From the NCBI RefSeq assembly GCF_001447785.1, contig NW_015173690.1:811230-875229 (forward strand): a stretch of 64,000 nt of DNA, given 5' to 3'. Of this stretch, positions 41,782 through 61,723 are shown one piece after another. Positions within the stretch are counted from its first letter, which is position 1; every line of letters starts with the position of its first letter. The translations under genes and the position numbers were made by a program. The notes beneath the pieces are model-generated. The model ran no database searches, was not told where the DNA came from, and was given only the letters and a program-made list of their open reading frames with translations. The stretch comes from Gekko japonicus (taxonomy: Eukaryota).

Positions 41782-42091
41782 ATGTCGAGCGAGGAGAGCT
41801 ACCTGGCCATCCTGCGCTACCTGACCAACGAGCGCGAGCCCTACGCGCCGGGCACCGAAGGCAACGCCAAGCGCAAGATCCGCAAGGCCGCCGCCTGCTA
41901 CGTCGTCCGCGGCGGCACCCTCTACTACCAGCGCCGGCAGCGGCACCAGCGGCGCTTCGCCGAGCTCGAGGTGGTCCTGCAGGCCGAGCGCCGCGCCCGC
42001 CTCATCCGGGCTGCGCACCTGGACGCCGACGGCACCCACCGGACTCGCCTGCAGACATGGCAGCGCCTCTCCCGGCGCTACTGGTGGCGAG
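41782..42091 (+). CDS. ZBTB11: ZBTB11 exon 1
   Basis: MSSEESYLAILRYLTNEREPYAPG...SRRYWWR+G|gtgagg. Confidence 0.96.
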
Positions 42092-45000
42092 GTGAGGGGA
42101 GGTGGCGGCGGCGGGAGGGCTGGTGGCGGGAAGGAGGGACACGGAGGCACCGAGCGTGGGAGCCGCCTCGCCTGGCCCGGGCGGAATGTGCTCTTCTTAC
42201 AGGCTCCCGGAGCCCCGGAGGAAGGCTGGCCGCTCGCCTGGAATGAACTCCCTGGAAAAAGGTTCCGCTCACACAAAGGGTCCTCGAAGGAGAACGCTGT
42301 CCGCTCCGGCAGAATCTTGCTCCCTTTCCTTTAGTTTTCTCATCGGAAGTGATGGCCTTTAAGATAATATTGGGCATCCGTATTGCTCGTCGTCTGAGGT
42401 GTCCAAAGCTCTTTAGGTTATCTCAGTAAGCACTACAGTTATCTTGTCAGGGATCCAGTGTTATTCCTACACAGCCCAATCTAGGGTTGCCAGCCCTGGG
42501 TTGGGAAATACCTGGAGATTTGTGGGGTGGAACCTAAGGAGGGGCAGGGCTGGGGGTGGGACTTCAATGGGGTCTAATGCCATAGTCCACCTCCCCAAAT
42601 GGCCATTTTCTCCAGGTGAACTGATATCTGTTGCCTGGAGATCAATTGTAATAGTGGGAGATCTCCAGCCACTACGTGGATGTTGGCAACCATAGCCCAA
42701 TTACACCTGTATTTACTCAGCAGCTGCTTCTGATCTCCACTGACTGAGAATTCATATATCCGAAGAGGCTGAAAGCTGACTTGCCAAGTAAATGAAAGGA
42801 TTCCTGTGACTTTTCCTATAACAAACTAACAGTTATTCCCATGGGAAGTAGGACTCCAAATATGGGAGAAAGATAATCCCAAGCATATTTGAAATTAAAT
42901 GGTCTTGTAGACACATTTCTTGGACTAGAACCCACTCAATCAGATGCATTGTGTATCTGTCCTCAACTGGCTGTATTATGTTTACATCTGTGGGATGGGC
43001 TTTTGGATAGTCAAGCATTTTGGCTGCAGCTGATCTTTAAACTCTTGGGAGCACATTCTGTATCAATAAGGAGCTGCTTTCGTTTAAGTTTTTGGAGTGA
43101 AAATGAGAATGGTTGTTGTCTAGCTTGTTGCATAGCTGAATCTGTTTTGAAAATAATGGTACAGAACATTGTAGTAGGACAACTTGATTAGATAGTAGTC
43201 CTTTGGAGAGATTAAGGTTACAGAGATTCTCCAAGAGCATCCATACTGTGGCCTGAAGGCCACCACTAGCCCATGAACACTTTGCATCCAGCAGTCATAC
43301 TACCCTGCTAGTGTACAGGTTAGCTTTGGCCCCGGTCACACGGCAAAGTTGCCGCGGGAGAGGCACGGATGGTGGACGGTTTATCCGGGCGCGATCACAC
43401 CTCAACATCTGGGAAGTGGAGCGCACCCATGGCTTACTGCCTAAAATGCGCGTTAAAAAAGTAGTACCTCGAAAGTACTAGTAAACGTTTGCCACGGGCT
43501 GCCTCCAGACTCCCGTGATCGTGCCGATGCGCGGCATCCCCCTCCGGTCCCTCGTTTACCCGCCAGCGCCGAGGGAAGGACCCATGGTGTGCTGCCGGCG
43601 CGTCTGATCATGTAATCGCGGATCAAACTGCGCCGGGGCAATTAGCCACGCCTCCCCCCTGCGATATCTGGCAGTGTGACCGGGTCCTTTGTACCTCTAA
43701 TGATGTGCCTGAAAGCAAAAACAGGCATATCTAAAGTGACACAGATCCCTCAGTGTCATGGATCATGCATGCACCATGCATCCCTTAGATCTATAAAGTG
43801 GAGAGACTGTTCCCATTTAGAGATCCTAGAGCATCTGGGGCATGTGTGGCAAAGAATGAAAGTAGACCATGCCCTTGCTCAGTCTACCAAATTGTTATGG
43901 GTAGTAATGGTGTAAGGCATTTCTGTATTACCTGTACAGGATCTTCTCTAAGACTTGATCTTTATAAGTCTACAATAAAGGTTGAGGGGAAATTTGACCA
44001 GCTCTTAGTCAATAAGTTGAAAATGACACTGGCAAAGTCTTATTTTTTCGTAGGGGGTAACTTACTGCTTTCTAGACACAAGTACAGCTGAATATTTTGT
44101 AGAGGTTGTAAAAGCAAACATCAGCTACAAAGGTGCTCAAGCCTTGCAGCCCGAGGGTTGTCTTGTTTTAGATAGTAAAATGAACAACCTCTAGCAAGCA
44201 GATAATTTTCTGCTCAAGAGTGTTTCTTGGAGGGAAAACAGGATTTTGAAGTGGGTCTAATCAAAGTATTTCCTATGAGCTTCCCGTGCTGTTGATTCAA
44301 CAAGAGACTGGCAGAACCCCAAAAAGGGAAATTCTGTGTTATGCAAAAATTCTGCAACATTTTCTCATGTGGACTGTGTTTATGCTTGGTGCACAATTGT
44401 CATGATCTGGCATATGTACTAATGGGGGGGGGGATAAGTACTGTTTCTGTGTATCTTTCAGGATTGGGTGCCCTTAAACAATACATGGAATCCTGATGCT
44501 GGCTAAGCTATGTAGGAAGATCTGTAGGAAAGTGCTGGCATTAGTTTGTTGGTTCCATCAGTTTCTAATAGAAAGCTGGGTTTCACAAATAGTAGCTGTA
44601 CTATTATTTTCTGCTAATCAGCTCCAAAATCTAATCCCACAGCAGTATTACCTGGTATTGTCTTGTTATGGTTAAACTTATGAGACATTATACTAACTTT
44701 GTTAAGAAAAAGGAAAACTATTCTTGTAATTGCAAGACTCATGCCGTTCAAGCTTATTTAAATTAATTAGTACATGAAATGGCTTTTATTTTCGAGCTGT
44801 GGTTACTTTTGTAACTTTTTGACTAATTTGCCCTTTCAATTAAAAAATAATTAGCAAATACCTAATTTTTACAAGAAAAGTTCAAATACTATAGAAAGTG
44901 TACATTTTGGGGTGAAGAGATTTGGACCAATCCATAACTTATTTACAATTTGGGCTTTGTACCATAAAATCTATGGAGTATTTGAGCTTTATAAACAGTG

Positions 45001-48000
45001 TTGTTAGGATCCAGAGAGCCTTTCTGCAGGTGAAAATAAATGGAGGGGTCTCCTTCAACCACCCAAAATGGCTATGCTGAGGATTATGGGACTTGCAAGG
45101 ACAGAAGTTGTGTGGGAGTGGAGCTATAGCAAGAAACAAAGTTCAGTGAGCTTTAGCAAAAAGGCTGGCTGGATCCAACCTTATGTATTTGCTTTTAAAA
45201 CCCTGTGTTATGCTTAGTTTTAGAGTTTGTATTTTTTAAAACAAAACTCAAAGGAACTGACAAGTTTTACTAGAACAAGGAATTCTGTGCACTTTAAAGC
45301 CTTTTACCACATTTTTGGTGGCAAGAATTTCTAGATTCAGCTTTTTCAGATAGAGTTTTTTCAAATAACAGGAGGGGTTTGTCTTCCTGCAGAGCGCATA
45401 CTTAATATGCAAAAGGCCTCCCAGTTAAAATATTGAAATTGCCAGATAAATGGGTCTCTGGTAGCTGGGCTGGGAACAGTCTGTGAATAGTATAATGAGG
45501 TCCAACATCCATTAGAGTAAACAGTGCTGTGCTAGTTGGTCTGATTCAGTATAAGGCAGCTTCATATGTTCAAGCCTGCAATCTTACGTAGTTAAATGGC
45601 AGAAAGTACAATTAAATTCAGTGGAATTTGCATATCATTATTTCAGCATCACTGAAAGTCCATGGCCTCTATGTTTGGAAAAGTTTTTAGTAGCTTTTAA
45701 TAGTGTTGTATGCAGGGGTCATTTCGTAGAAAAAGAGGTGCAGGAGCTCATGAGCATACCTCATTAGCATAACTTATTTGCATATGCCACACTCCCTGAC
45801 ATCACCAGAAGTGTGTCAGAAGGCAACACCCACTGCAACTTTCCTGGCTGCTTCTTGCTCCTCGTGGCCCAGGGCTGCTGGGAGCAGGGGGCGGGGCATC
45901 TTGCATGTGCCTGCCCCCTGGGCTCTGTAGTGCCGGAGCTCCGCTCCTGTGCACTCCTGCAGGAAATGACCCCTGGATGTATGTGTGCTATTCCTGTCTT
46001 TATACACCCCGCACCCCCACTGACTGAAGGACAGGATACAGAAAGGATAGTCAGATATTAAGAGGAGCTGCTTTTGATGCACAGAAAAATCTGGGCTGAA
46101 ATTAAAGTAAAAATTGACTATAAGGTCTTTAAGGCACTGTTGAATAAATTCCTTTGCCTTAGACACTTGCTGTAAAGGAAGTCTTGTTACTGGTAAGTTG
46201 TTAAACTTTTCTGTAGAATGCTAATCACGTTCATGAAAGACAGATTGGGTCACCTAATTTACTGTTGAGGATACCTGAAATACCATGAGCAAAGCCGTCC
46301 TTTATGGTGTAAATAAAATCAAAAATTCAAAAGACTTTTTATTCCTTTCCTTAGGTATTCTAAAGCAAGTCAAAGATTACATTAAAGAATGTAGCAAGTG
46401 CCAAGAAAAATTAGATCGTTCCAGATCCTTGTCAGATCCTTCTGAAATGCTGGAAGAACTTGGATTAGACACAGCTCTGCACGAAGACAGTAATGAAACA
46501 GATGATGAATTAAGTAACTCTGCATCACTTCCAGCTGCATCACCAAAGCCTGTGAAAAAGAAGCCAATAGCCAAACATGAGCTTGTATTTGTAAGTTGCA
46601 TTCAATGTACCTTGGTACAGGAGGCTAGTTTACATTTTTATTTCTTATTCCTATGTAGAGAACTGAAGGGCATCGGTATTGGGGGGCAAACCTTTTCTTG
46701 CCCACAGACAGTCCCCCAATCTTAAACAACTCCTCACCCTCAATAATACAGCATCGAATTTGAACTTGGACACTGGTACCAGAGCTTGCAGTAAACTCAG
46801 ATGCAAACTTTGCTGCCACATACACCTAGACAATAAAATCACTGGACCTAACAACATCAACTACACCATTTCAGGCTCATTCATCTTCTAACATTGTCTA
46901 TACCATTAAATGTCAACAGTGCCCTTCAGTTCTCTACACAGGGCAAACAGGTCAAACCCTACACCAAAGGTTAAATGGACACAAATCTGACATCAAGAAT
47001 CACAAGACTGCGAAACCTGTAGGAGAACACTTCAGCCTTCCAGGACATTCAGTGGGGGACCTCAAAGTAGCTGTTTTATTACACAGGAACCTCAGAAACA
47101 GACTAGAACGGGGAAATTGCTGAGTTACAAGTTATTACAACGCTCAGGACAATGGAACCCCCAGGGCTTAAAAAGGATATTGATTTCTTATCTCAGTACA
47201 CATGCTAATGTCATTCGGTTCTTGCATCTGTTGTAAACGCCTTTATTATGCTGTATGCTCATTTGTTGCTGTTCACAGGTTTATCAATTGCCTTCATCCA
47301 GTCTTAGCTATATCTACTGCTCAGTTAGTTATGCATCTTGACTCTAATTGGCCCTTCCTGGCAACACCCTCCTCACCCTCTACCTATATGTAATGGTTGG
47401 TGACTTCTGTTTCGATGTATCTGAAGAAGTGTGCAGGCACACGAAAGCTTATGCCCAGAATAAAGCTCTGTTGGTCTTAAAGGCACCACTGGACTCAGAC
47501 TTTGTTCTATTACTTCAGACTAACACAGCTACTCACTGGATCCTTTAAAGAAATACATCTCTCCCTTATAATAAAAGAGTAGTGGGTGCCAAAATTCTAA
47601 AATGCGCCCCGTTAGTGTATGGCCGGAAGAATTGCCACTCAGAAGACGCTGGCTGCGATGACTGGCTCCCTCAGTGAACCTGGGCTGCCATTGGCTGGGT
47701 GGCTGGGAGGGGAGGGAGCCAGTATCACAGCCAGCGTCTTCTGAGGGCAATTCTTCTGGCCATAAACTAACCCGCCACATTCAGGACAGTGGCGAACGGA
47801 GCCGGAGGCCCCCCCGCCCGCACTCCAGGCCGGCGGACGAGGCCTGCAGCCTCCGTCTGCCGGTTCCCCCCGCCCGCTCTCCAGGCCGGCGGACGAGGCC
47901 TGCAGCCTCCGTCCGCCAATACCTTTTGACGCCGGCGGACTAGGCCTCCAGGGCCCATCCGCCGGCTCCCCCTACCCTCCTGCACCCAGTCCAGGCCGGC

Positions 48001-51000
48001 GGACGAGCCCTCCAGGGCCCGTCCACCGGTTCCCCCCACCCCCCGCCCCCCAGTCCAGGCCGGGTCCGTTCCACTGGGTCCGCTCCCCCCCTCCTTTTTC
48101 TCTCTCTCCCCTCCCAACATTCTCTCTCTCACTCACTCTGTTTCCCCCCTCTCTTTGTTTCTCTGCCCTTCTTCCTTCTCAACTATCCTTCGTCCCATTC
48201 ACTCTCTCTCACTCTCTGTCTTTCTACCCATCTTCCTTCCTTCCTTCCTTCCTTCCTTCCTTCCTTCCTTCCTTCCTCCCTTCCTTCCTAGCTTTCTTCC
48301 TTCCTTCCTTTCCAAATTACTAACATTAACCCCACTCTGTCTCCCCCCCTTTTCTCTCTTTCCCCCCTCTCTAACTCTGTCTCTCTCTCTCTACCTCCTG
48401 TTCTCCATTCCTCCCTTCCACTCGCCCTTCCTTCCTATCTAGGGCCCGTCGTCTACCGCCACGACGGGCTTTGCTTACTAGTTTAAAATAAGTCAAAATG
48501 AATTTGTTTTATGTCACAAAGAACATAAATATTATTTGCTGTATTTTTATCCTTCTCAAAGGGGCTAACAATTTTTTAAATCCAGTGGGTGGAATCCAGA
48601 CTGCCAGTAAATTTTCCACTAACATAAGGGATGGGATAATTTCCACCAACTCTATATTCCTTCTGAAGACTTCCAGTTTGCCTCTCATTCTGCCTCAGAG
48701 GGTCCCCTGTCCCCCAGGAGCAGCATTTTAGGAAGATCTGTGGCTGCAGTCGGGAGGCAGGAATATTCTGTTCCACTGACAAATGTGTCTCGGGTAACCA
48801 GAAAATTTAGTCTAAATCCCATCCATTACCCTTACTGACTACAAAATATGATTCAGGGAGGGAAACATTTTTCTAGTTATTCACTAGAAACATTTTGAAA
48901 GGTTCGTTGAAAGTTAATATGCTGCTTCTTGCATTTTTTTAAATGCCAGGTTGATAGTAAAGGCCTTGTGAAACAGTCTTCTTCAAAGCATTCTCAGTCA
49001 GTCTTGAATCAGCTGAATCAACAACGGCTATCCAATCAATTCTGTGATGTTACTTTGCTCATTGAAGGAGAAGTATACAAAGCACACAAATCTGTTTTGG
49101 CAGCTAATAGTGAGTACTTCAGAGAACTCTTTATCGAAAAGGGAGCTGTTTCCAGTCATGAAGCTGTAGTGGATCTTTCAGGTAAATTTATCTGACAAGA
49201 ACCATGTAGAAAATAAGTTCATTGAACTCTTGTGGTCAAAGATTGGTTGATCAAATATAATTGTAGATAAACTCCTTGCTGTGTTTTTGAAAGCTTGTGG
49301 AGTATTTCCCCCCCAATAGAACTGAGGTTGTTTGCTGTTTGGCTTGATCTTGGTTATTGTGCTATCCGGTTACATCGGCCAAGTTTAAAGTAGGCATGTC
49401 CTTTATCTGCACAGCTTCCCTTTACTGGCCCGTATCCTACTACTCCACAGCAAGGTTTGACTCCTCTCTCCAGCCTAAGGAGCATTGCTCCAACTTAACT
49501 TCCTCCAATGGAAGAGGCACTCGAGTTGGAGAGAGCCTCCATAGGCAGGAAGAAGCCCTCAGACTTTGCTGAGTAGAGGGTACAGGCTGTTATATGTTGC
49601 CCTTAACAAAATATAATTAAACTGCATTAATAGATATTACTGAATTTTTGCATGCTTGATCTGAATACACAGAAATGTCCTGGAATCACAGTAGAAGGAA
49701 TATACTCTACCTAGCTTTGGAGTAGGCTTCAGTCAGACTGATGGAATAAGTGTTTCTCATTCATGCAAGTTGTTATGATGAGAGCCTTTTACCCAATCAT
49801 GAATATGGCAGCTGGCATAGCTATAGTTCTTATGTAGTTTGCTTATTTTGAGCAAGCGGTAGCTGCACAACTCAGGCTGAAGAGACTCAAATCTAATTTT
49901 CAGATACTGTACAACCAAATCTAGGTAATTGTATTAACACTAACGTTAACATTTTACAAGGTAAAGAATACAAATATTGTTTGATATGGTCCTGCAGTAT
50001 AGTTCTCTGCTTTCTGTATATTTAGACTTGCAGTTTAATAAATAACTTGGAGCATTATGTTTTGCTTTAGAACAAAGATGGGTTCCCACATAAGCCTCTT
50101 AATGAGGCTACAAACACATGAAACCCCCCCTATTTCTGCTTGTATAGGCTTCCAAAAGAACGGAGAGGTCTCAATTTCACTAGAAGCCAAAATAGGCAAG
50201 TATTGCTTGAGAAGGCTTCAAATGCAATCTGATTTCTGTGACGTGTACACAGATAAGGCTGTTGCTGCCACCACCACTACACGCAGTCTCTGGTTTCTAG
50301 CATCCTTCAGCTTCTAAGCCCTCTTCTTTATTTCTTGTTTGTTTGAAGCTATAATATACTCTGAGGACTTTGTGCATATAGTTTCAAATTGTTGCTGCAG
50401 TCAGTAATTTTCTAGTAAAAGCATTAATTCGTTTTAAATTAAACTGGGGAATCATCTCTGCACACTCTTCTGATGTCTTATTTCTTATTTGGTGCAGGGT
50501 TTTGCAAGGCCAGTTTCCTGCCTTTACTGGAATTTGCTTATACCTCAGAGTTGACTTTTGATTTCTGTAACATGGCAGAATTAGCAGTGCTGGCTCGACA
50601 TCTCTTCATGACAGAAGTCCTAGAAATCTGTGAAAATGTGCACAAACAAATGGAAGATAAACAAATCACAGTGTACCAGAAAGGGGATGTTCAGGTAGTT
50701 GAGGTAGCACAGAATCTTTTAGCGCCAACTGAAAACGGGGCTAACGCTGCAGACGGGACTGAGCAGCCTTCACCCACAGAAGATGCAGTTGCAACCGTGA
50801 ATGGAGCATATTCAAGCACTGAAGTGGAAGAGCTGACTGAGTCAGAGGCTGTCCTGCAAACTGCACCAGAACCCCCTGTGGACGATGCTCCAAAGCCTGA
50901 GGTGCATTCTACTGCTACAGAGACAGCTGAAAGCAATGTAAAAGCCCCAGCAGAGGAAGTCATCACAGATCAGAGTGTATCTGTGGAGCAGTCTGAGTCT

Positions 51001-54000
51001 TCAGCAGTGGAGCAAGAAGTCATCAGCACTCCAGCAGAAACTGAGGCTGATAAAAATGTAAGCGGTGAACAAAACACAAGCGGTGAATTAACTGCAGAGG
51101 CTGCTGCTGAAGATTCCCAGGAAGGATTTAAACGGAAACGCGGTAGGCCATGTAAAACACAGAGCACTCCATTGTCTCAGTCAGAGATCTCCGTTTCCAT
51201 TCAAGATGACACTTACAAAAGCAAGCTTCGCCAACGGTCTGTTAGTGAAGGTGGCTATATCAAATTGCACAAGGGCGTTGAGAAAAAACTACAGAATAGA
51301 AAGCCAGCCACCAAATCAGCCATCCAACAGGTATAAGAGATACTTAAAAATTTGTAGTGTGTTGTCTTCAGTTTGGTCTCTCATGATGATGTCTTTTGGC
51401 ATGCAAATTGCTCTTTGGTACTCTTTGTGTCACTGATTTTATCATTAGGTGCTCAGCTTACATTCATTTTCGCTAGCAGCTGACACTTTTTTAATTTTCT
51501 AACTAGGTTGCCATGAAGCTAGTACAAAGAGGCAAAAAGATGAAGCAGCCCAAGAGAGATACTGTGGAGCACAATGAGGCAGAAGCACAGCACAAATGCA
51601 GTGAATGTGGAATGATTTTTCAGAGACGTTATGCCCTTATAATGCACACATTGAAGCATGAAAGGACGAAAAATTATAAATGTCCAGTGAGTTGATCTTG
51701 AAATATACCCTGTGTAGATGCATGTTCTGTAACCCTGCTAGTCTGTGGGTTGAGGTCCTGCCAGTATTTCCCAGGTGGGTGGGGATGATCTCCTGTGATT
51801 TCTTTCGTCACTGGAGCCTTGTCCCATGTGGCAGTCTTTCCACATGGGTCCCACAATCTATGGCATAGCCTTTTTGGAGCTCAAAAAGATCATTGCTCCA
51901 GCAGAAAAGCTGGTAGGATCCAACCATATGCAAATAACTATTTTAAGTATTGTGTTTTTCTGGTTGTTTATAGCCCAGCGTTACCACTTGAAGTACTCTC
52001 TGGTTAGGTGCCTTGGTTGTCTTTTAAGAAGCCTTCTGATTCTGTGCTTATTCCAATAATGTAGCTGATCTATAATGTTTCAATCTTCTCACCGGTTAGC
52101 TTCTTAGAAGAAAATAACTATTCTACATTGAACGTTGAAACTTTCTTTCAGTCCTTTGTTTTAGTGATTTTATAGTTATGAGGTCACCTAGTCTTGGAGT
52201 ATTACATGGAAAATGTACTGTTTTTTCAAGGGTGTGTACTGCAGGTGAATAGATTCACACTAGTCTGAGCAATCTTTTAGAATTCCAGATTTCATTAGTC
52301 TATCAGAGTCACACCTTTTATGTACATAGCATTTGCAGACTTGGAAGTAACTCCTACCTTTACAAAAATGTGGTATGCATGCTGGTTTTTGACTTTGTGC
52401 TGTGATCACAGGTACATTTTCTATGAGAAATCAATGCACATTTTTGTTGTTCCAGCTATGTAAAAAAGAGTTCCAGTATGGTGCCTCATTACGAGCTCAC
52501 CTTGTTCGTCATACTCGGAAAAACGAAGTGACTGTTGCAACTGCCAGTATTGAAGAGAGTGGTGCAGCTGCAAAGGGCAGAACTAAACGGGAGTTTATAT
52601 GTGATATATGTGGAAGAAGTTTGCCTAAACTCTATTCCTTGAGAATTCATATGCTGAAACATACAGGTGTAAAGCCACATGCATGTAAGGTAAAATAATA
52701 ATAATAAAGCTATTTCTCAGTGTACTCACTTTCTTGATGCAAATTTTGCATATTCAAGCCATGTCTCTAAAAGTTCAATTATTAACTAAAAGAACAGAAC
52801 TTCAAATATCGTTGCATACAAGTTAAGGGAAAAGTGTGGTCAGTTGTAATTAAAGTCATACTTCGGGTAGCTTTAGGAATAAAGGCAGAGGTGCTATGGA
52901 ATCTTTCTTGAAATTAGTTAATGGGCAGTGATGCTGTTTGCCACATTCCTTTCCCTCCAGCTGTGCTTTCTGACCCTGGGGAAAGTCGATCTCTGGAACT
53001 GTGAGACCCATGTGAACAAATACCCTTGTAGATGAGGTGGGGCTGTAGTGAAGAGGGTGCAAAGTGCAAAATCTCATTTCTACCAGAAGTGCAGCTTTGC
53101 CAACGGAAGCAGGGGGACTGGGGACTTCTCCCCCTTTCCCTTCCTCACTGCAGCAGCTGACCTATTAGTCCATTCATATGCTATGATCCCAGGAATCAGT
53201 GTTCCTGGGATTGGTGGGGAGGGGAAGATGGCAGAAGTCTACATCTGCCAGCACCTTTAACTGACTGCTCCCTGGATCCATCCCAGTACCTCTGTTCGAT
53301 GCTTCCTAAGAAAGATGAAAATTCATCATATCCTAGACACTCCACATTTTACTGACTTGGATTGAAACTCAAGATTTTTGAAATTACTATTCCTATGGTA
53401 CCTTAACTGTTCTTTTGGTATGAGGGCTGGCAGTTTGTTCATACATTGTGTTGGAAGATCTGCTCCACCAATGGTGACAGTGTTCTCCAGTAGAGGAAAC
53501 TCATCTGTCAGCAGGAGGTTCTTGTGTAGGAAGAAGGGTGCCACCATTAGTGGAATGGATCCGTAGGATCTAAGCCAGTGAGTTTGGCAGCAAAGTTGTC
53601 CAGTCTTTTGGTGTGACTATATATCTCATGATATTTGCAGGTTTACAGTTGGTTTGGGGTAATAGGTGATAGAGTTGCACGGCTCTTTGCAACTGAAGGT
53701 TTGAAATTAAAATTTGTGTGTTGTAGGAGGCTTCTAAAAGCATTGGTTGAAATCTCAGTTTGAATTATAATTAAACATTGACAATATTTGTATGCACCAA
53801 AAATGAACCTCTCAAGTATTTTTAAGCTTGAACTTACTTCCTTGGTAAGTTTCTCTTCATTGGAATTTTGTCATCTTCAGCAATATAAATTTTGTCTTTT
53901 CCTGAAACAANNNNNNNNNNNNNNNNNNNNNNNNNNNNNNNNNNNNNNNNNNNNNNNNNNNNNNNTCCATGAAGCTTATTTATTGTAGAATGTTTTTGTC

Positions 54001-57000
54001 TGCTTGAGAATACCTTAACATTCTTGCTGGCAATTTTATGTCTTATAGATTTGTGGCAAGTCATTCACCTACAAGCATGGTTTAAAGATGCATCTTGCAC
54101 TCCATGAGGCACAGAAGCAGTTTAAATGTGAACTGTGTGACAAGTCTTTTGTCACAAAACGAAGCCTGCAGGAGCATGTGAGCATTCACACAGGTAAATA
54201 AGTTCCACTTCTCTCCCCAGGTATACAGACAGCAATAGCTGTCAGAATGTGTAAACTGAATATAAACTACAAACCCTCAGACAAGGCTTGCAAATTCAAA
54301 CTGATATGTGAGATTAGGGTTTTCACAAACTTTAGGCCAGGAAGCCGAGTGGGCTGGCGACTAGAATGCTCTTGTGGTGAGTTACTCGAGACTGTAGGAG
54401 CTCATTCAGCCCCGTTGCTGGAATGTACTGCCTCCTCTCTGACCAGTGTTGGATTCTTCTTTTTAACTTTTGGGAGAGGAGAGGCTGCCATTCTATCACT
54501 GGTGACCTGGCAACCTTTCCATAAGTACATTCATCACCCACCCCTAATAGACATTCCTTGCCTCAGTCACAATAACCTGTGCTACCAGAGCACGTCAGTT
54601 CCACAGTGGTCTGTTTGCTGATATGCAGTGGTCCAGCTAAGAGATGAATGAGGAAAATGCAGTAGGGAATGAACTGGAAAAGTACATTAGAATGCACTTG
54701 ATTGGAGCGGTGGAAAGTAAATGCATAATGTTTTTGCAGGCTTGGAAAACAGGCAAAAGATTGTGCGTGCAGAATGTATGGTCTTCTGTTACTGGCCTTT
54801 GTGTTAATCATGTAGATGCAGGACTGATGCCAAACATGTTAACCCCAGTTTTCCTTAACAGAAATCAGTAGCAGAGCTGGTAATGTCAGAATATGTCTAT
54901 GGACTGATTATTAGACTCTGAGCTTGTTAATGCTTAAATTATAACATTTTAATGGTTTATGGGTTGCCTTTTAAATTAAGTTTACATACCTAGTTAGCAC
55001 TTGGTAGAAATTTGGGCTTTTGCATGTGCCTCTTTGTGTCTTATTCACATGTCCATCTTTATCTATTTTCTGCAACACTTTTTTGGTTGAGGTCATCTCT
55101 CCCCCTTCTTCCTTGTTTCTTCATTTTATCCTCTGGCCCCTCATCTTCCCTATGTCCAGAGCCACCCCAGTTCTTCTGCTTTTTTTTTCTTGGCACTGTT
55201 CCATTTCCTGTGCTAGTTCTGGCTTTCACTCAACCCCTGTCCAACATCTTACCTGTGCTCAGAGCCTATCAGCCAGTCTTTCTCCTGGTGCTTTTGTTCC
55301 CTCTTGTAACCACATCTTCCCTCAGTACCTGTTTTGTCTCCACATCTTTGATTTCCTTTCCTTTTATCAAAGAAAATGCCATTTTGTCTTCGCTTCAGAC
55401 AAAACCTGAATTTGTGTTTATCCTGTTTCCTGCTTTCCCCCACCTGGTGTTCTTGCCATCGAATGATTAACTCCTTTGATCTCTCTTATTTGAGAACTGT
55501 AGCTTCCAACCTGCCCTGTGTGAGACTTTTCCCTTTACAATAATAATTATTATGATCGTATGGTACTGTGTGCAGAATAGCCAGGACATCCAAAGATTGT
55601 CTGGCAGCCGCAAGTTATAGCTTTTAGCATTATGCACCACTAAGTGGTGAGCTACGCTTGTTTTCAGGGGCTGAGAGAGCTCTGAAAGAACTGTGGCTGA
55701 CCTAAGGTCACCCTGCTGGCTTCATGTGGAGGGTAGGGAATTGAACCTGGTTCTCCACCACTCTTAGCTACTACATCAAGCTGGTTCTCTTTACATAAAC
55801 CATTTGTTTCCTTTAAAAAAGAGGGAGGGACTATAAAATTTTTCTAAATAAGACCAGCGTTTGTCTGTATGATATATCTAGATGATGCGACAGCAGCCAA
55901 GCCTTTGGCTGAAAGCAGGACTTGCCTGGTGGCAACAACCTTCTTAAAGCTTAGTATTGACCACCCAACCTTGATTCCACTTGTGTGAGTGTATTATGAG
56001 CACTGTTTGATATTGTTAATGCATATGTAGTTTTACAGTATTAGTTTTAATGCAGTCACTTCTGTGCTTAACAATGTAATGTTCCTTAATGGTGTTTCAA
56101 CTCTTGTTTGTCAGGAGAATCAAAATACTTCTGTCCACACTGTGGAAAATCTTTCCATAGAGCTTCAGGACTTAGTAAGCATATAAAGAAGCACCAGCCC
56201 AAACCTGAAATCCGTGGATATCAATGTACTCAGTAAGTAGGAGAAGATTCTTGAGCCTATGGAAGTAACATTTATTTTGCTAACATTATTGGATATTGAC
56301 AGAAATGTGTCTGTTGCTTTCAGTGAAGATGGTCCAAATTGAATAAGGAAATAACCATTATTGAAGGTGTTTCTGTAGCTGAAAGAATACCAGTTTGTTG
56401 TTGTTGTTTTTTCAAAGGAAATCAGTAGCTGGTAGTTTTGAAACAATTGTAAAAATTTCCTTTGATTAAATAAAAACGCTTTATTACTTTTTGCTGTAAA
56501 TCAATGGTTCCCAAACCTTTTCAGGCCACAACCTCCCTGGTTCCATAAACTCATCCACAGTGTCCCTTACCCTATCAAAAGCATTATTCAGAATAGCGAC
56601 CCACTAAGGAAGATAATATCAATAAAATTCAAAACTGGAACAATTAATTGCACATTTATTCAAAACCAAATTAAAACATTTTAGTTTCATTTATTCAATA
56701 AAACTGATTAACTTGTTCTAGCGATACCTGCTTTTCAAAGTCTAATAAGTCATTTAGCAAGAATCCTAGATACCACATTTAGTAACTTCTTGATGGATAG
56801 GCTTGATGAAGTGATACTAGTTTCCCAAAATCTAATTGAGTTAGTTCTGATATGCATAGTAAGTTTTTATATGCGTGTCTGGTTGATTAGGGTTAAAAGT
56901 ACTGTTCTAAAAACAAAGCCTTCAGAATAAGACTGTATAACATTTTTTTTAAAATAAACTGTTTATTTCTATGTTAGCAAAGATACAACATCGTGAAAGC

Positions 57001-60000
57001 ACAATCCCGCAGTATCTATAAGACTAAAACAACTTTCTCTAAAGACTAAGCAGTACCTCTCAAAGATACATTACATAAGAGCATTAACTGGTGACAACGG
57101 TTTCATTGAGGCCAAACTATCAACCCCTCCCTACTTCCTCTCAGCTTACACATCCGAATTTTACATCGCTAACCACCTATTGTAATACGCGTTCCTGGGC
57201 AGTATATCCTGCCTAGAGAGATGAGAATATTGAAAACCAGACACCCTCAAATTTGGAGCTTAAAGGTAGAGATGACTGGGCCCTGCGTACACCCTCTGTG
57301 ATCTTGGCCATCACAAAATGGTCCCACACTTTATCCAGCCAAGCTGACACCGTGGGCATGTACGGAGATTTCCAACAAGATGCAATTACCAGGCGTGCTG
57401 TCGCTAGAAGTGTAGATATTACCTCCTCATTCCTTTTATCCAGCTCCACTTCCCACCGATTGAGTAGAAAGACTTCAGGTTTGAAGGTAAGAGTGATCGA
57501 AGTCATGGCTGTGATCTGATTCCGAACCTCTTCCCAGAACTTTCTTATACCCGAACACTCCCACCAACAGTGTAACAGAGGACCGATCCGTCCGCAACCC
57601 TTCCAACAATATGGATCATTAGTTGTTTTTATCTTATGTAGCAATTGGGGGGTCATGTACCATCTAGTACTTAGTTTGAAAAACTGCAGCCTTATATTGA
57701 AAACACTGGAGTTATTGGCGGGGGAAGACCATATAGCACCCCAATCCTCTTCGTTCCATTGCACCATCAAGTCCTCCTCCCACCGGTCTTGAAATTTCAG
57801 TTTCGATCGACTTTCCTCCGCTAAAATGACTTTATACAGTTTGGATAGGGTCCCCTTCGGCGCATTGGGGTAGCATTTGATTATTTTCTCCAGGTCCGTT
57901 AGCTCCCGTTGAAAAGTGCCCATTTCCGTGAGCCGTGCTATAAGCTCTTGTAGTTGCAGGTATTGACACCAAGGAGTTCGTTTCCCCATTATCTGATCAA
58001 AGTGGTGCTTGCTCCGTATTGCCCCTTTATCTACCAGGTCTATAGGGCGGTCTTCTCTTAAAAAAAAAAACCACCCAAAAAACAAAGACACCTGGAAGAA
58101 AAGTTGCATACTGGTTCTCCGCCAGAGGAACTAATTTTCTACGTTTGGGGAAAGATTCTCTTTGTTTTAATGTGAACTACCTGATCCTTTTAACTGGAGA
58201 TGTTATGGACTGAACCTGGTACTTTATGCATACAAAAGGGCTTCTAGAGAGATTTTATTTGAAGCAGATACTCTGATAACGGCTTCACCTGCATCATCAC
58301 ATGAGAGTTGGATATCATACTACAGTTTTGTCCCAGCCTTATTCCTAGGATCACAGGGTTGCATATATAATTCTCCTCCTCTTTCACCCACCCCTGTAAT
58401 GAAGCAAGTTAAGCTGAGGGTGTGTAACTGGTCCACTAAATTGGGATTTGAACCCAGTTATCCCGAGTCACACTCTAACCTCTAACCTACACTGGCTCTC
58501 CTGGGGCTCAGCTGCTCCTGTGATTAAACATTTCCAATAAATGCCTCTGTTTTGCATTTCCTTGTATGGGCAGAGAAAACCACTAGAATTTAGTGATTAT
58601 CTTAACAGGAATATAGGGAGAATCAATTATAATGCTTTAATGCATTACTTTTTCATAATACCATCACCAGATGGTTTCAGTTGTGGTTTCTGTCCTCATA
58701 TAGCAGCTTGGACTGCTTGGGTTTGAGCCACTTCAGTGTCCTCTTGTATCATGGTATTAATGATTTAAAGGCACCTTGCAAATGTGAAACACTGTAATGA
58801 GTACTAGCAAGAAAGGGGGAAGCTTTGTCAGCTTCAGCTGGGAAGCTCAAAATACTTGGCTCACCTCACTCAGAAAATGTAATGACCACAGAGGTCTTGT
58901 AAAATCTTTTTCTAAGATCTGCATTTCCCTTCCCCAATTCATTAGTCTGTGTGGTATTAGACTGAACGGTTTAGAACTGAATCTTAGTTAAAAGGCCCTG
59001 TGCAAGAAGCCTCTAGGCCAAGCCAGTGCCTGGAAAGGCTGGGGAAGAGAGGCTGAGGAACTTGCCTGGGTCTCCCTCTTAGGACAAAGTTCCTTTCACT
59101 ATCTTATATGCACATATTGACAGCTGAGATCCATAAGTAGTTTTGGGCCATCCACCAGTTGGCAGTTCTGCTGGAGATTAAAGGATCCAGAGGTATTGTG
59201 AATAGTGCATGACACCTCTTTAAATGCATACACCCCAACAGTGGATCCAGTGCTTCTATGGTGAGGTTTGGGCCAGAAACGTGGACTCCTTTTATTTTAT
59301 GTGTTAAAAGACACCTTCCTACAGTTGTGGTGATCTGAAGATTATCCATTCTTCCTTCATGAAGCATAATTTTCAATTACCTAAACGAATAGTGCATGAC
59401 ACCTCTTTAAATGCACACACCCCAACAGTGGATCCAGTGCTCCTTAACAGGTGGCTATGGTGAGGTTTGGGCCAGAAACTTGGACTCCTTTTATTTTATG
59501 TGTTAAAAGACACCTTCCTACAGTTGTGGTGATCTGAAGATTATCCATTCTTCCTTCATGAAGCATAATTTTCAATTACCTAAACGTGTGTTCAAAGAGT
59601 AGCCCATGTACATTTCTTAGCAGATTATACAGCCTATGATAGCCCCATTTACAATGTTCTTTCCATTATGGACAAGAAAAAACTGTATGAGCGAGCCTGT
59701 AGAATGAGGAATAGGTAGTCTGCCATGCCTGAAAGCTATGCCACATGTGGCCCTGAACATTCATCCAGTAATCTGCCCTGAGGAAAAATTAGCTCTCAGC
59801 CCAAATACACAATTTGCTTCTTTTAAGTATGATAACAAAGCCTTATGACCCTCCCTGAGACCTTTGTTAGGTTTTTATAATCAGGTAGCTTTATCTTCAA
59901 TTATGGCCATCTTTGAAAGTGAAAACATAATCCTAAAATACTTTTGTTGCTGTAGGGTCACTAAAGTATCATATAAAAACGCACTGTGAAATCTGTTCTC

Positions 60001-61723
60001 TTGGACGTCTGTCCCAGTTACCTTTCACTTTTTTTCAGGTGCAATGTGTGTGGCAAAGAATTCTATGAGAAAGCTTTGTACAGACGGCATGTCAAGAAAG
60101 CCACTCATGGGAAGAAAGGGAGAGCAAAACAGAACTTGGAACGTATTTGTGAACATTGTGGGAGGAAATTCACTCAACTTCGGGAGTACAGAAGACACAT
60201 GAATAACCATGAGGGTAACCATGATATGTTGGATGTTCAGAGAAATGAATCATAAGCAATTTATTTAGTTTAGAAACAACAAAATATCCTGTTGGATCTG
60301 GAGAAATTCAAGGACATTTGCAGATGCAGGTTTTTCTCTCCCTCAATCTCCTCTCTCCCCTGACAACTATTCCCTGAGACATCCAGTAAGCTGATGGAGG
60401 TCACAGGATACACATGGGCAAAAGAAAAAGGTAGCCTGGAGGAGGTGAAGCCAAATGAAACCTCATCTTTCAGTAGTATTTCTGTGTGCAAAAGCTGGCA
60501 CAAAAGCTGGCAGTTTCCCCTAATTTTCCATTTTCACTGTTGCCCCACACCACCTCACTCATGGCTTGTGGCTTTTTTGTCCATGTGGGTGGTGCTGCTC
60601 TAGCATCAACTTTTGAGAGGTCTCAAGAATTGTCTGTGGAAAGAGGGGTGACTGGNNNNNNNNNNAAAGAGTGGTGACTGGAAAGGTCTACATCTGCATT
60701 TGCTTTCCACTGGTCCTTCATTGGATCCGAACTGTTAAATTGTTGGGGGAAACAGTTCCTGTCAATATTGCTTTTACAGTACTGAAAACATTAAGAGTTG
60801 AATGTAAATGTACACTCTTTGCAGAGCCTGAGAACAAATATGCAACATCTAGATATCAATTACTGTCTTAACCCGCTAAAAGTTGGCTGTATCTTTGTAT
60901 CACAGACTATAGCATCTTTCAAGAATATTTCATAATCCCTCCCAGGAGGCTGTTCCTTACCTATTTAATACGGTTTCTGCATGTTACATATCATATATAA
61001 GAACTCAGAGTGACTGTGGTTGAGAATGGTATATCTTGGCATGAAGACATTAACCAGTGAAAGGGGACCTTTTAGATTCAGTGTTTTCTATTGTAATCTG
61101 TGGAGACTGAGCCTTCAGAGCGATTGCTACCAACTTACTTTTGCAGAGGTGATTTTGCTTAGCCTTACAAAGGCTTTTAACTTTTCTTTATTTTCATGTT
61201 TTGTTGACTAGGAGTTAAGCCCTTCGAATGTCTCACCTGTGGAGTAGCTTGGGCTGATGCACGTTCTTTAAAGCGCCATGTAAGGTCACATACTGGAGAG
61301 CGGCCCTATGTTTGTCCAGTGTGCAATGAAGCCTACATAGATGCTCGTACCTTGAGGAAGCATATGACCAAGTTCCACCGGGATTATGTACCTTGTAAAA
61401 TTATGCTGGAAAAGGACACACTTCAGTTTCATAACCAGGGGACTCAAGTGGAGCATGCCATCAGTATTTTGACGTCTGATGCAGCAGAACAAGAAACAGA
61501 AATGTGTGATGAACAGATTGAGACAGTTGTAGTAACTGAAGAAACTCTTGAAGCTGTTGCAGCTACTGAAGAGTGTACAACAGTTTCCACTCTTTCTGAC
61601 CAAAGTATCATGCAGGTAGTCAATTACGTATTGGCACAACAGCAAGGACAGAAAATGACTGAGGTTACAGAAGCTATTCAGACTGTAGAAGTAGAGGTAG
61701 AACATGCTTCTGATCAGGACTAA
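41782..61723 (+). CDS. ZBTB11: Zinc finger and BTB domain-containing protein 11: join(41782..42091,46355..46590,48950..49181,50498..51330,51507..51686,52456..52689,54049..54193,56115..56232,60039..60214,61212..61723), 2976 nt, 991 aa as assembled; exon homologous to human exon 9 not found
   Basis: MSSEESY...YWWRGILKQVKDYIKECSKCQ (integrase-type HHCC), BTB domain (FCDVTLLIEG...HKSVLAANSEYF), C2H2 array and C-terminal VSTLSDQSIMQVVNYVLAQQQG. Confidence 0.95.
42482..42694. mobile_element. hAT-type MITE
   Basis: TIR tagggttgcca / tggcaaccata; 8-bp TSD gcccaatc/gcccaatt. Confidence 0.8.
43328..43687. mobile_element. PIF/Harbinger-type MITE, shorter relative of 36489-37076 in the opposite orientation
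   Basis: TIR ggccccggtcacac / gtgtgaccgggtcc; TTT flanks; internal segments are reverse complements of the first copy. Confidence 0.7.
46355..46590 (+). CDS. ZBTB11: ZBTB11 exon 2
   Basis: ILKQVKDYIKECSKCQEKLDRS...KHELVF|gtaagt. Confidence 0.96.
46650..47541 (+). mobile_element. Penelope-like retroelement 3' part (decayed GIY-YIG endonuclease plus pseudo-LTR)
   Basis: ACSKLRCKLC.. then NIVYTIKCQQCPSVLYTGQTGQTLHQRLNGHKSDIK...PVGEHF, a GIY-YIG pattern; 3' pLTR at 47400-47541. Confidence 0.85.
47417..47454 (+). ncRNA. Minimal hammerhead ribozyme motif in the Penelope pLTR
   Basis: gtat-CTGAAGA-a-GTGTG(cagg)CACAC-GAAA-gctt-atgc. Confidence 0.6.
47558..48481 (+). mobile_element. Non-autonomous Helitron
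   Basis: A|TC 5' end, 3' hairpin GCCCGTCGT-8nt-ACGACGGGC, then CTAG|T; no TSD. Confidence 0.85.
48231..48313. repeat. (CCTT)n microsatellite inside the Helitron
   Basis: Read directly. Confidence 0.9.
48950..49181 (+). CDS. ZBTB11: ZBTB11 exon 3 (BTB)
   Basis: VDSKGLVK...FCDVTLLIEGEVYKAHKSVL...AVVDLS. Confidence 0.96.
50498..51330 (+). CDS. ZBTB11: ZBTB11 exon 4
   Basis: FCKASFLPLLEFAYTS...DDTYKSKLRQRSV...KSAIQQ. Confidence 0.95.
51507..51686 (+). CDS. ZBTB11: ZBTB11 exon 5
   Basis: VAMKLVQRGKKMKQPKRD...HKCSECGMIFQRRYALIMHTLKH...YKCP. Confidence 0.96.
52456..52689 (+). CDS. ZBTB11: ZBTB11 exon 6
   Basis: LCKKEFQYGASLRAHLVRH...FICDICGRSLPKLYSLRIHMLKHTGVKPHACK. Confidence 0.96.
54049..54193 (+). 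CDS. ZBTB11: ZBTB11 exon 7
   Basis: ICGKSFTYKHGLKMHLALHEAQKQFKCELCDKSFVTKRSLQEHVSIHT (not in ORF track; translated by hand). Confidence 0.95.
55660..55790 (-). mobile_element. tRNA-derived squamate SINE fragment
   Basis: ggggctgagagagctctg...aaggtcacc...gggaattgaacctggttctcc (B-box-like on the minus strand). Confidence 0.5.
56115..56232 (+). CDS. ZBTB11: ZBTB11 exon 8
   Basis: ESKYFCPHCGKSFHRASGLSKHIKKHQPKPEIRGYQCT+CA|gtaagt. Confidence 0.95.
56943..58057 (-). mobile_element. 5'-truncated L1-clade LINE (ORF2 C-terminus, 3' UTR, short polyA)
   Basis: Open frame with WYMTP...CWKGC...LLHCWWEC..IRKFW (L1 cysteine-rich C-terminus); AATAAA and A-tail at ~56943-56968 on the minus strand. Confidence 0.85.
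59200..59585. repeat. Tandem duplication (187 bp + 199 bp copies)
   Basis: gaatagtgcatgacacc...ttacctaaac twice; the second copy has a ~12-bp insertion and 2-3 SNPs. Confidence 0.9.
60039..60214 (+). CDS. ZBTB11: ZBTB11 exon equivalent to human exon 10
   Basis: CNVCGKEFYEKALYRRHVKKATHGKKGRAKQNLERICEHCGRKFTQLREYRRHMNNHE. Confidence 0.95.
61212..61723 (+). CDS. ZBTB11: ZBTB11 terminal coding exon
   Basis: VKPFECLTCGVAWADARSLKRHVRSHTGERPYVCPVC...EHASDQD*. Confidence 0.96.

Follow-up and report, generated by a model that had tools for sequence, protein, structure and literature searches.

Does the ZBTB11 gene of Gekko japonicus lack an exon encoding two C2H2 zinc fingers, or is that exon missing from the assembled sequence only? 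The question was raised by the initial annotation of the window (the whole 64,000-nucleotide stretch of DNA analyzed here), in which exon 8 of ZBTB11 is followed directly by exon 10, and which was read as either a deletion associated with an L1 element or a mis-assembly.

The ZBTB11 gene model and its orthologues

ZBTB11 occupies positions 41782-61723 on the plus strand of the window, where ten GT..AG exons give a 991-aa protein. Comparison of translations showed this protein to be the same as P0001, which carries the database label Gekko japonicus ZBTB11, XP_015278626.1. The exons are as follows.

41782-42091, + strand: ZBTB11 exon 1 (GT..AG model, translation as in P0001)
46355-46590, + strand: ZBTB11 exon 2 (GT..AG model, translation as in P0001)
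48950-49181, + strand: ZBTB11 exon 3 (GT..AG model, translation as in P0001)
50498-51330, + strand: ZBTB11 exon 4 (GT..AG model, translation as in P0001)
51507-51686, + strand: ZBTB11 exon 5 (GT..AG model, translation as in P0001)
52456-52689, + strand: ZBTB11 exon 6 (GT..AG model; RNA joint 6-7)
54049-54193, + strand: ZBTB11 exon 7 (GT..AG model; RNA joints 6-7 and 7-8)
56115-56232, + strand: ZBTB11 exon 8 (translation model; phase-2 donor, GT at 56233)
60039-60214, + strand: ZBTB11 exon 10 (translation model; AG before 60039; single copy in the assembly)
61212-61723, + strand: ZBTB11 exon 11, to the stop codon (translation model; joint 10-11 in all three RNA runs)

Pfam detected PF17921 at residues 69-121 of P0001 and PF00651 at residues 204-310, together with PF00096, so that both the N-terminal integrase-like zinc finger and the BTB domain expected of ZBTB11 are present. 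The C2H2 finger pattern occurs 10 times in the 991-aa window model as against 12 times in P0006, the protein of the gecko Heteronotia. On the predicted protein sequences, the fingers missing from P0001 are fingers 7 and 8 (P0006 residues 764-816).

A sensitive tblastn search with this 53-aa exon-9 peptide found no exon 9 inside the intron at 56233-60038. The best match lying wholly within that interval covered 8 residues (16.5 bits, E 5.5), and the other matches were to other finger exons. No Ns separate exon 8 from exon 10, the nearest runs being at 53911-53965 and 60656-60665. The initial annotation had thus described the interval accurately, and its exon 8 and exon 10 boundaries, in-frame direct join, 991-aa product and deficit of two fingers agree with P0001. 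A degenerate exon 9 elsewhere in the window was rejected because a permissive tblastn search gave no such match, and a second ZBTB11 locus was rejected because exon 10 matches the assembly once.

Orthologues were taken from the best 120 of 401 matches, among which exon 1 is 82-100% identical. Counting was restricted to the 86 entries with both flanking anchor motifs, the remaining 34 being partial or without an anchor. The anchors are 70 residues apart in 82 of the 86 entries, which accordingly keep the 53 exon-9 residues, and 17 residues apart in the other four (P0001, gannet, golden eagle, and marmoset). The four other gecko entries examined (P0002, P0005, P0006, and P0022) all have exon 9.

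The gannet, golden eagle, and marmoset entries (P0029, P0039, and P0117) are without exactly the same 53 residues as P0001. The gannet short form is annotated as "isoform 2," and its cluster also holds a 1044-aa "isoform 1" (P0121). Exon 9 may be skipped in frame in a minor amniote isoform, or such entries may recur as a product of annotation. Separately, 24 BTB-domain residues found in the other geckos are missing from the Paroedura picta entry P0005 ("isoform X2"), which an alternative exon-3 donor could explain.

Exon 9 in the assembly and in spliced RNA

A search of the assembly itself with the exon-9 peptide, as the initial annotation had recommended, gave 144 matches. The top match was 100% identical (C102036:137-295, E 1.8e-33), and the runner-up was 45% identical (E 3.6e-9). 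C102036 is an orphan contig, and the window's missing exon therefore lies on another scaffold of the same assembly.

C102036:136-294 (436-bp orphan contig, same assembly): ZBTB11 exon 9, 159 nt, AG..GT, phase 2/2, open frame

All 52 full codons of this exon are identical in translation to residues 764-815 of Heteronotia P0006, and the exon encodes two PF00096 stretches. The exon-bearing part of C102036 occurs once in the assembly; of the whole contig, the final ~70 nt alone match a dispersed repeat. A processed or displaced copy of exon 9 was rejected, as C102036 has the AG and GT splice sites and intron flanks, and its other matches are confined to the 3' repeat.

Six of 24 listed sequencing runs were examined: raw RNA from X21, X22, and X23, DNA contigs from X1, and contigs from X2 and X4. 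Approximately 3% of X21 and 12% each of X22 and X23 was read. The runs show many differences from the window and were taken to come from animals other than the assembled one. Of 401 X22 reads, 380 were at least 99% like the window, which argues against another species as their source. As a side observation, the 55-N gap in intron 6 (53911-53965) is spanned by a 6832-nt X1 contig, so this gap hides no exon of the model.

RNA reads leave the window behind position 56232, at the end of exon 8, in X22 (21 reads) and X23 (7 reads), and their 30-nt consensus is that of C102036:136-165, the start of exon 9. One X2 contig has the same exon 8-9 end. At the other side, 15 X22 reads enter at 60039, and the 20-nt consensus preceding this position is that of C102036:275-294, the end of exon 9. 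Exon 9 is thus included in transcripts of X22, X23, and X2; in X21 the exon-9 loose end was not seen among the rows listed. Joints 6-7, 7-8, and 10-11 were listed in all three raw RNA runs. No exon 8-10 joint was listed in any of the three, where listing required 3 reads with 2 different starts, as against the 21 and 7 inclusion reads; a skipped form may exist as a minor one. Of the two kinds of junction that the initial annotation had proposed to look for, those listed are the ones of an included exon 9.

With the two fingers of exon 9, spliced in RNA, added to the 10 of the window model, the count of 12 expected for ZBTB11 is reached. The product of the full gene would be an ordinary ZBTB11 of 1044 aa and 12 fingers, 991 plus 53 residues being the length of P0006.

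Intron 8 and the probable place of the break

The following features lie between exons 8 and 10 of the window.

56782-56886, + strand: 105-nt direct repeat, copy 1; copy 2, with 2 differences, opens orphan contig C84876 (reverse strand)
56887-57588, - strand: 702-nt insert between the 105-nt repeat copies, made up of 59 nt of dispersed repeat and an L1 3' end
57589-58175, no strand assigned: likely foreign filler, 587 nt, with L1 sequence to 58050 and then 124 nt resembling contig C5003
57588-58176, + strand: putative site of exon 9 (the exon itself being outside the window), where ~1.1 kb would consist of C84876 in reverse, a gap, C102036, and ~47 nt
58176-58231, + strand: 3' part of a dispersed repeat, which we presume to be SINE-like; its 5' part ends orphan contig C102036
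59200-59586, + strand: tandem pair of 188 and 200 nt, the copies differing by 3 letters and a 12-nt indel

Contigs of X2 and X4 depart from the window at 56886 and run on for 658 and 620 nt, respectively. This continuation matches the assembly once, at the 568-bp orphan C84876. When reversed, this contig begins exactly at 56782, copies 56782-56886, and then continues for 463 nt that are absent from the window. The joint 57588-T-56782 was found in 6 reads of X21, 3 reads of X23, and one X2 contig. The 702-nt insert is real at the locus in at least some animals.

The first part of the insert (56887-56945) is 90-95% like all five loci compared and is a dispersed repeat. The following L1 sequence includes 233 nt (56955-57187) that are 100% identical to orphan contig C165141, showing that the same animal has a near-identical second L1 end. 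An open frame on the minus strand (57213-58127) matches residues 1029-1230 of LINE-1 ORF2p (PDB 8uw3, E 8.3e-23); Pfam gave nothing for this frame at E 1. No target-site duplication was found at the assembled L1 ends, where the 60-nt flanks share only a 10-nt A-rich word. The element had been described as a young L1 without a visible target-site duplication. An L1 ORF2 3' fragment without such a duplication is indeed present, but membership of a young, high-copy family does not fit its best long paralogues, which are 81-89% identical, although short pieces are near-identical elsewhere (100% over 233 nt and 97.5% over 121 nt).

Several further observations concern the insert and its surroundings. 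In X4 a 752-nt DNA contig passes without interruption from 56755 across the 105-nt repeat to sequence on the exon-9 side, the 702-nt insert being absent, whereas X2, X21, and X23 show the insert; it may be polymorphic among animals that share one species label. On either side of the insert lies a copy of the 105-nt direct repeat. Past the L1 poly(A), the insert opens with 59 nt from a different dispersed repeat, and there is no second tail. This structure would fit a copy of another locus made in templated DNA repair better than it would a fresh L1 insertion. Sequence entering at 56895 was rejected as part of this locus, since the pattern recurs at 13 places and belongs to a dispersed repeat. 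A ~340-nt dispersed element at 56491-56833 has many 72-84% copies in the assembly, and its start resembles what we take to be a hAT-type terminal repeat.

Beyond the insert, the window sequence resembles material from other contigs. C112159 and C1709 are both 97.5% identical to the window over 57930-58050 and diverge from it thereafter, and 58051-58174 is 96.8% identical to a stretch of C5003. Read depth is zero over 57600-58199 in X21 and over 57600-58124 in X2, with depth on both sides, a dip that is no proof by itself. X1 and X4 do have a contig across 57588/57589, as expected from paralogous L1 copies, but this would be expected from a real allele of the window type too. At the distal end, the 3' end of C102036 and the sequence from 58176 onward stand in tandem in 4 of 7 paralogues of the repeat, with spacings of 47, 47, 41, and 25 nt; the two control stretches showed no such arrangement. 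In a locus-specific X2 contig the 10 letters before 58176 do not fit the window. No exact end overlaps of 5 nt or more were found among C84876, C102036, and C165141 in the orientations tested.

The tandem pair at 59200-59586 corresponds to the haplotype-like duplication noticed in the initial annotation. A single 2279-nt X1 DNA contig crosses 58180-60645 with one copy of the pair and no exon 9, and the pair was rejected as the place where the exon was lost. The pair likely consists of two haplotypes that assembly placed one after the other, and it has no connection with the missing exon.

Origin of the truncated model and comparison with known systems

We consider it very probable that the species has an intact exon 9, which is spliced to exons 8 and 10, and that the absence of this exon from the window is a scaffold-level assembly error. 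In the true intron, position 56886 would be followed by the 702-nt insert, ending in the L1 3' fragment at 57588, and by the second 105-nt copy. After this copy would come at least 463 nt (C84876), a short gap, exon 9 (C102036), ~47 nt, and the repeat at 58176; the order of C84876 before C102036 and the gap between them are presumptive. The assembler or a gap filler likely left the short L1 fragment for a longer and nearly identical copy elsewhere, and the assembly path would then have rejoined in the dispersed repeat at 58176. The outcome would be 587 nt of filler replacing ~1.1 kb, with no N left. A mis-join from the L1 fragment into a paralogue would explain the missing target-site duplication at the assembled L1 ends, and the broken model stays in frame because exon 9 is 159 nt long with phase 2/2. 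As a counterpoint, the 96.8% identity of 58051-58174 to C5003 is lower than would usually be expected had software copied sequence within one animal's data.

That shortfall from 100%, at 96.8-97.5% for the filler pieces and their look-alikes, is one of the points in favor of a heterozygous animal, with exon 9 on one chromosome (represented by the orphan contigs) and a true rearrangement giving a 10-finger allele on the other. The absence of N from 56233-60038 would fit this too, as would the apparent structural variability of the intron, in which the X4 contig passes from 56755-56886 to exon-9-side sequence with no insert. However, a long contig or read path crossing 58175/58176 as in the window was found in none of the six runs, and no 8-10 joint was listed in the three RNA runs. 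The replaced stretch also ends on both sides in repeats, a typical place for a mis-join, and another haplotype-like artefact is found in this intron, at 59200-59586. We regard such heterozygosity as improbable, and there is correspondingly little chance that the window is a real second haplotype, with an in-frame exon-9 deletion segregating and a 10-finger ZBTB11 in some geckos. Under that reading, the ZBTB11 of such geckos would be like the form without exon 9 that is annotated for gannet, eagle, and marmoset.

An L1-associated deletion that removed exon 9 and became fixed throughout the species can be considered extremely improbable. The window does lack the exon while remaining in frame, and the L1 at the site shows no target-site duplication at either assembled end, but exon 9 exists in the same assembly, on C102036, and in spliced RNA of X22, X23, and X2. 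The proposal of a lineage-specific two-finger loss does not survive these findings, whereas the accompanying judgment that mis-assembly was at least as likely is borne out by them and by the contigs of other runs, which leave the window path within the interval. A true loss would have offered a natural experiment on which fingers of a conserved factor are dispensable.

Our preferred reading, an assembly error, means that the exon-9 loss is no real feature and that the gene is ordinary; the value of the analysis lies in the correction. The public 991-aa model (XP_015278626.1) inherits the assembly artefact and, being without fingers 7 and 8, would introduce a false lineage-specific loss into reptile comparisons of ZBTB11. 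Even where an interval contains no N and the reading frame is preserved, an exon can have been dropped. No literature on ZBTB11 exon 9 of this kind or on gecko ZBTB11 was found by title and start of abstract, in a search mainly of openly accessible articles.

L1 insertions can be accompanied by deletion of sequence at the target. The likeness at this locus is that sequence is missing where there is an L1 fragment, and that the assembled ends of this fragment show no target-site duplication. The differences are that the missing sequence persists in the assembly and in RNA and that the insert is flanked by a 105-nt repeat with its second copy on an orphan contig. An L1 is thus present at the site, but the exon is absent from neither genome nor transcripts.

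In other respects the protein follows the vertebrate ZBTB11 pattern of an integrase-like HHCC finger, a BTB domain, and 12 C2H2 fingers, with the same Pfam domains (PF17921, PF00651, and PF00096). The exon-9 peptide is identical to that of Heteronotia P0006, and only the assembled P0001 model differs. For human ZBTB11, one report mentions finger 12 and disease arising from finger variants (PMC9337812). A further parallel is with false gene losses in short-read assemblies. Kim et al. (2022, PMC9516821) report that in older assemblies missing and fragmented exons are common false losses, and that ~26-60% of genes are hit by one of eight error types. Among the "fragmented" false losses treated there, ADAM7 and YIPF6 have an exon on another scaffold and a falsely short annotation, as ZBTB11 does here. 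ZBTB11 differs from that class in that the dropped exon is internal and symmetric and that filler rather than Ns takes its place, so that the model looks complete and in frame.
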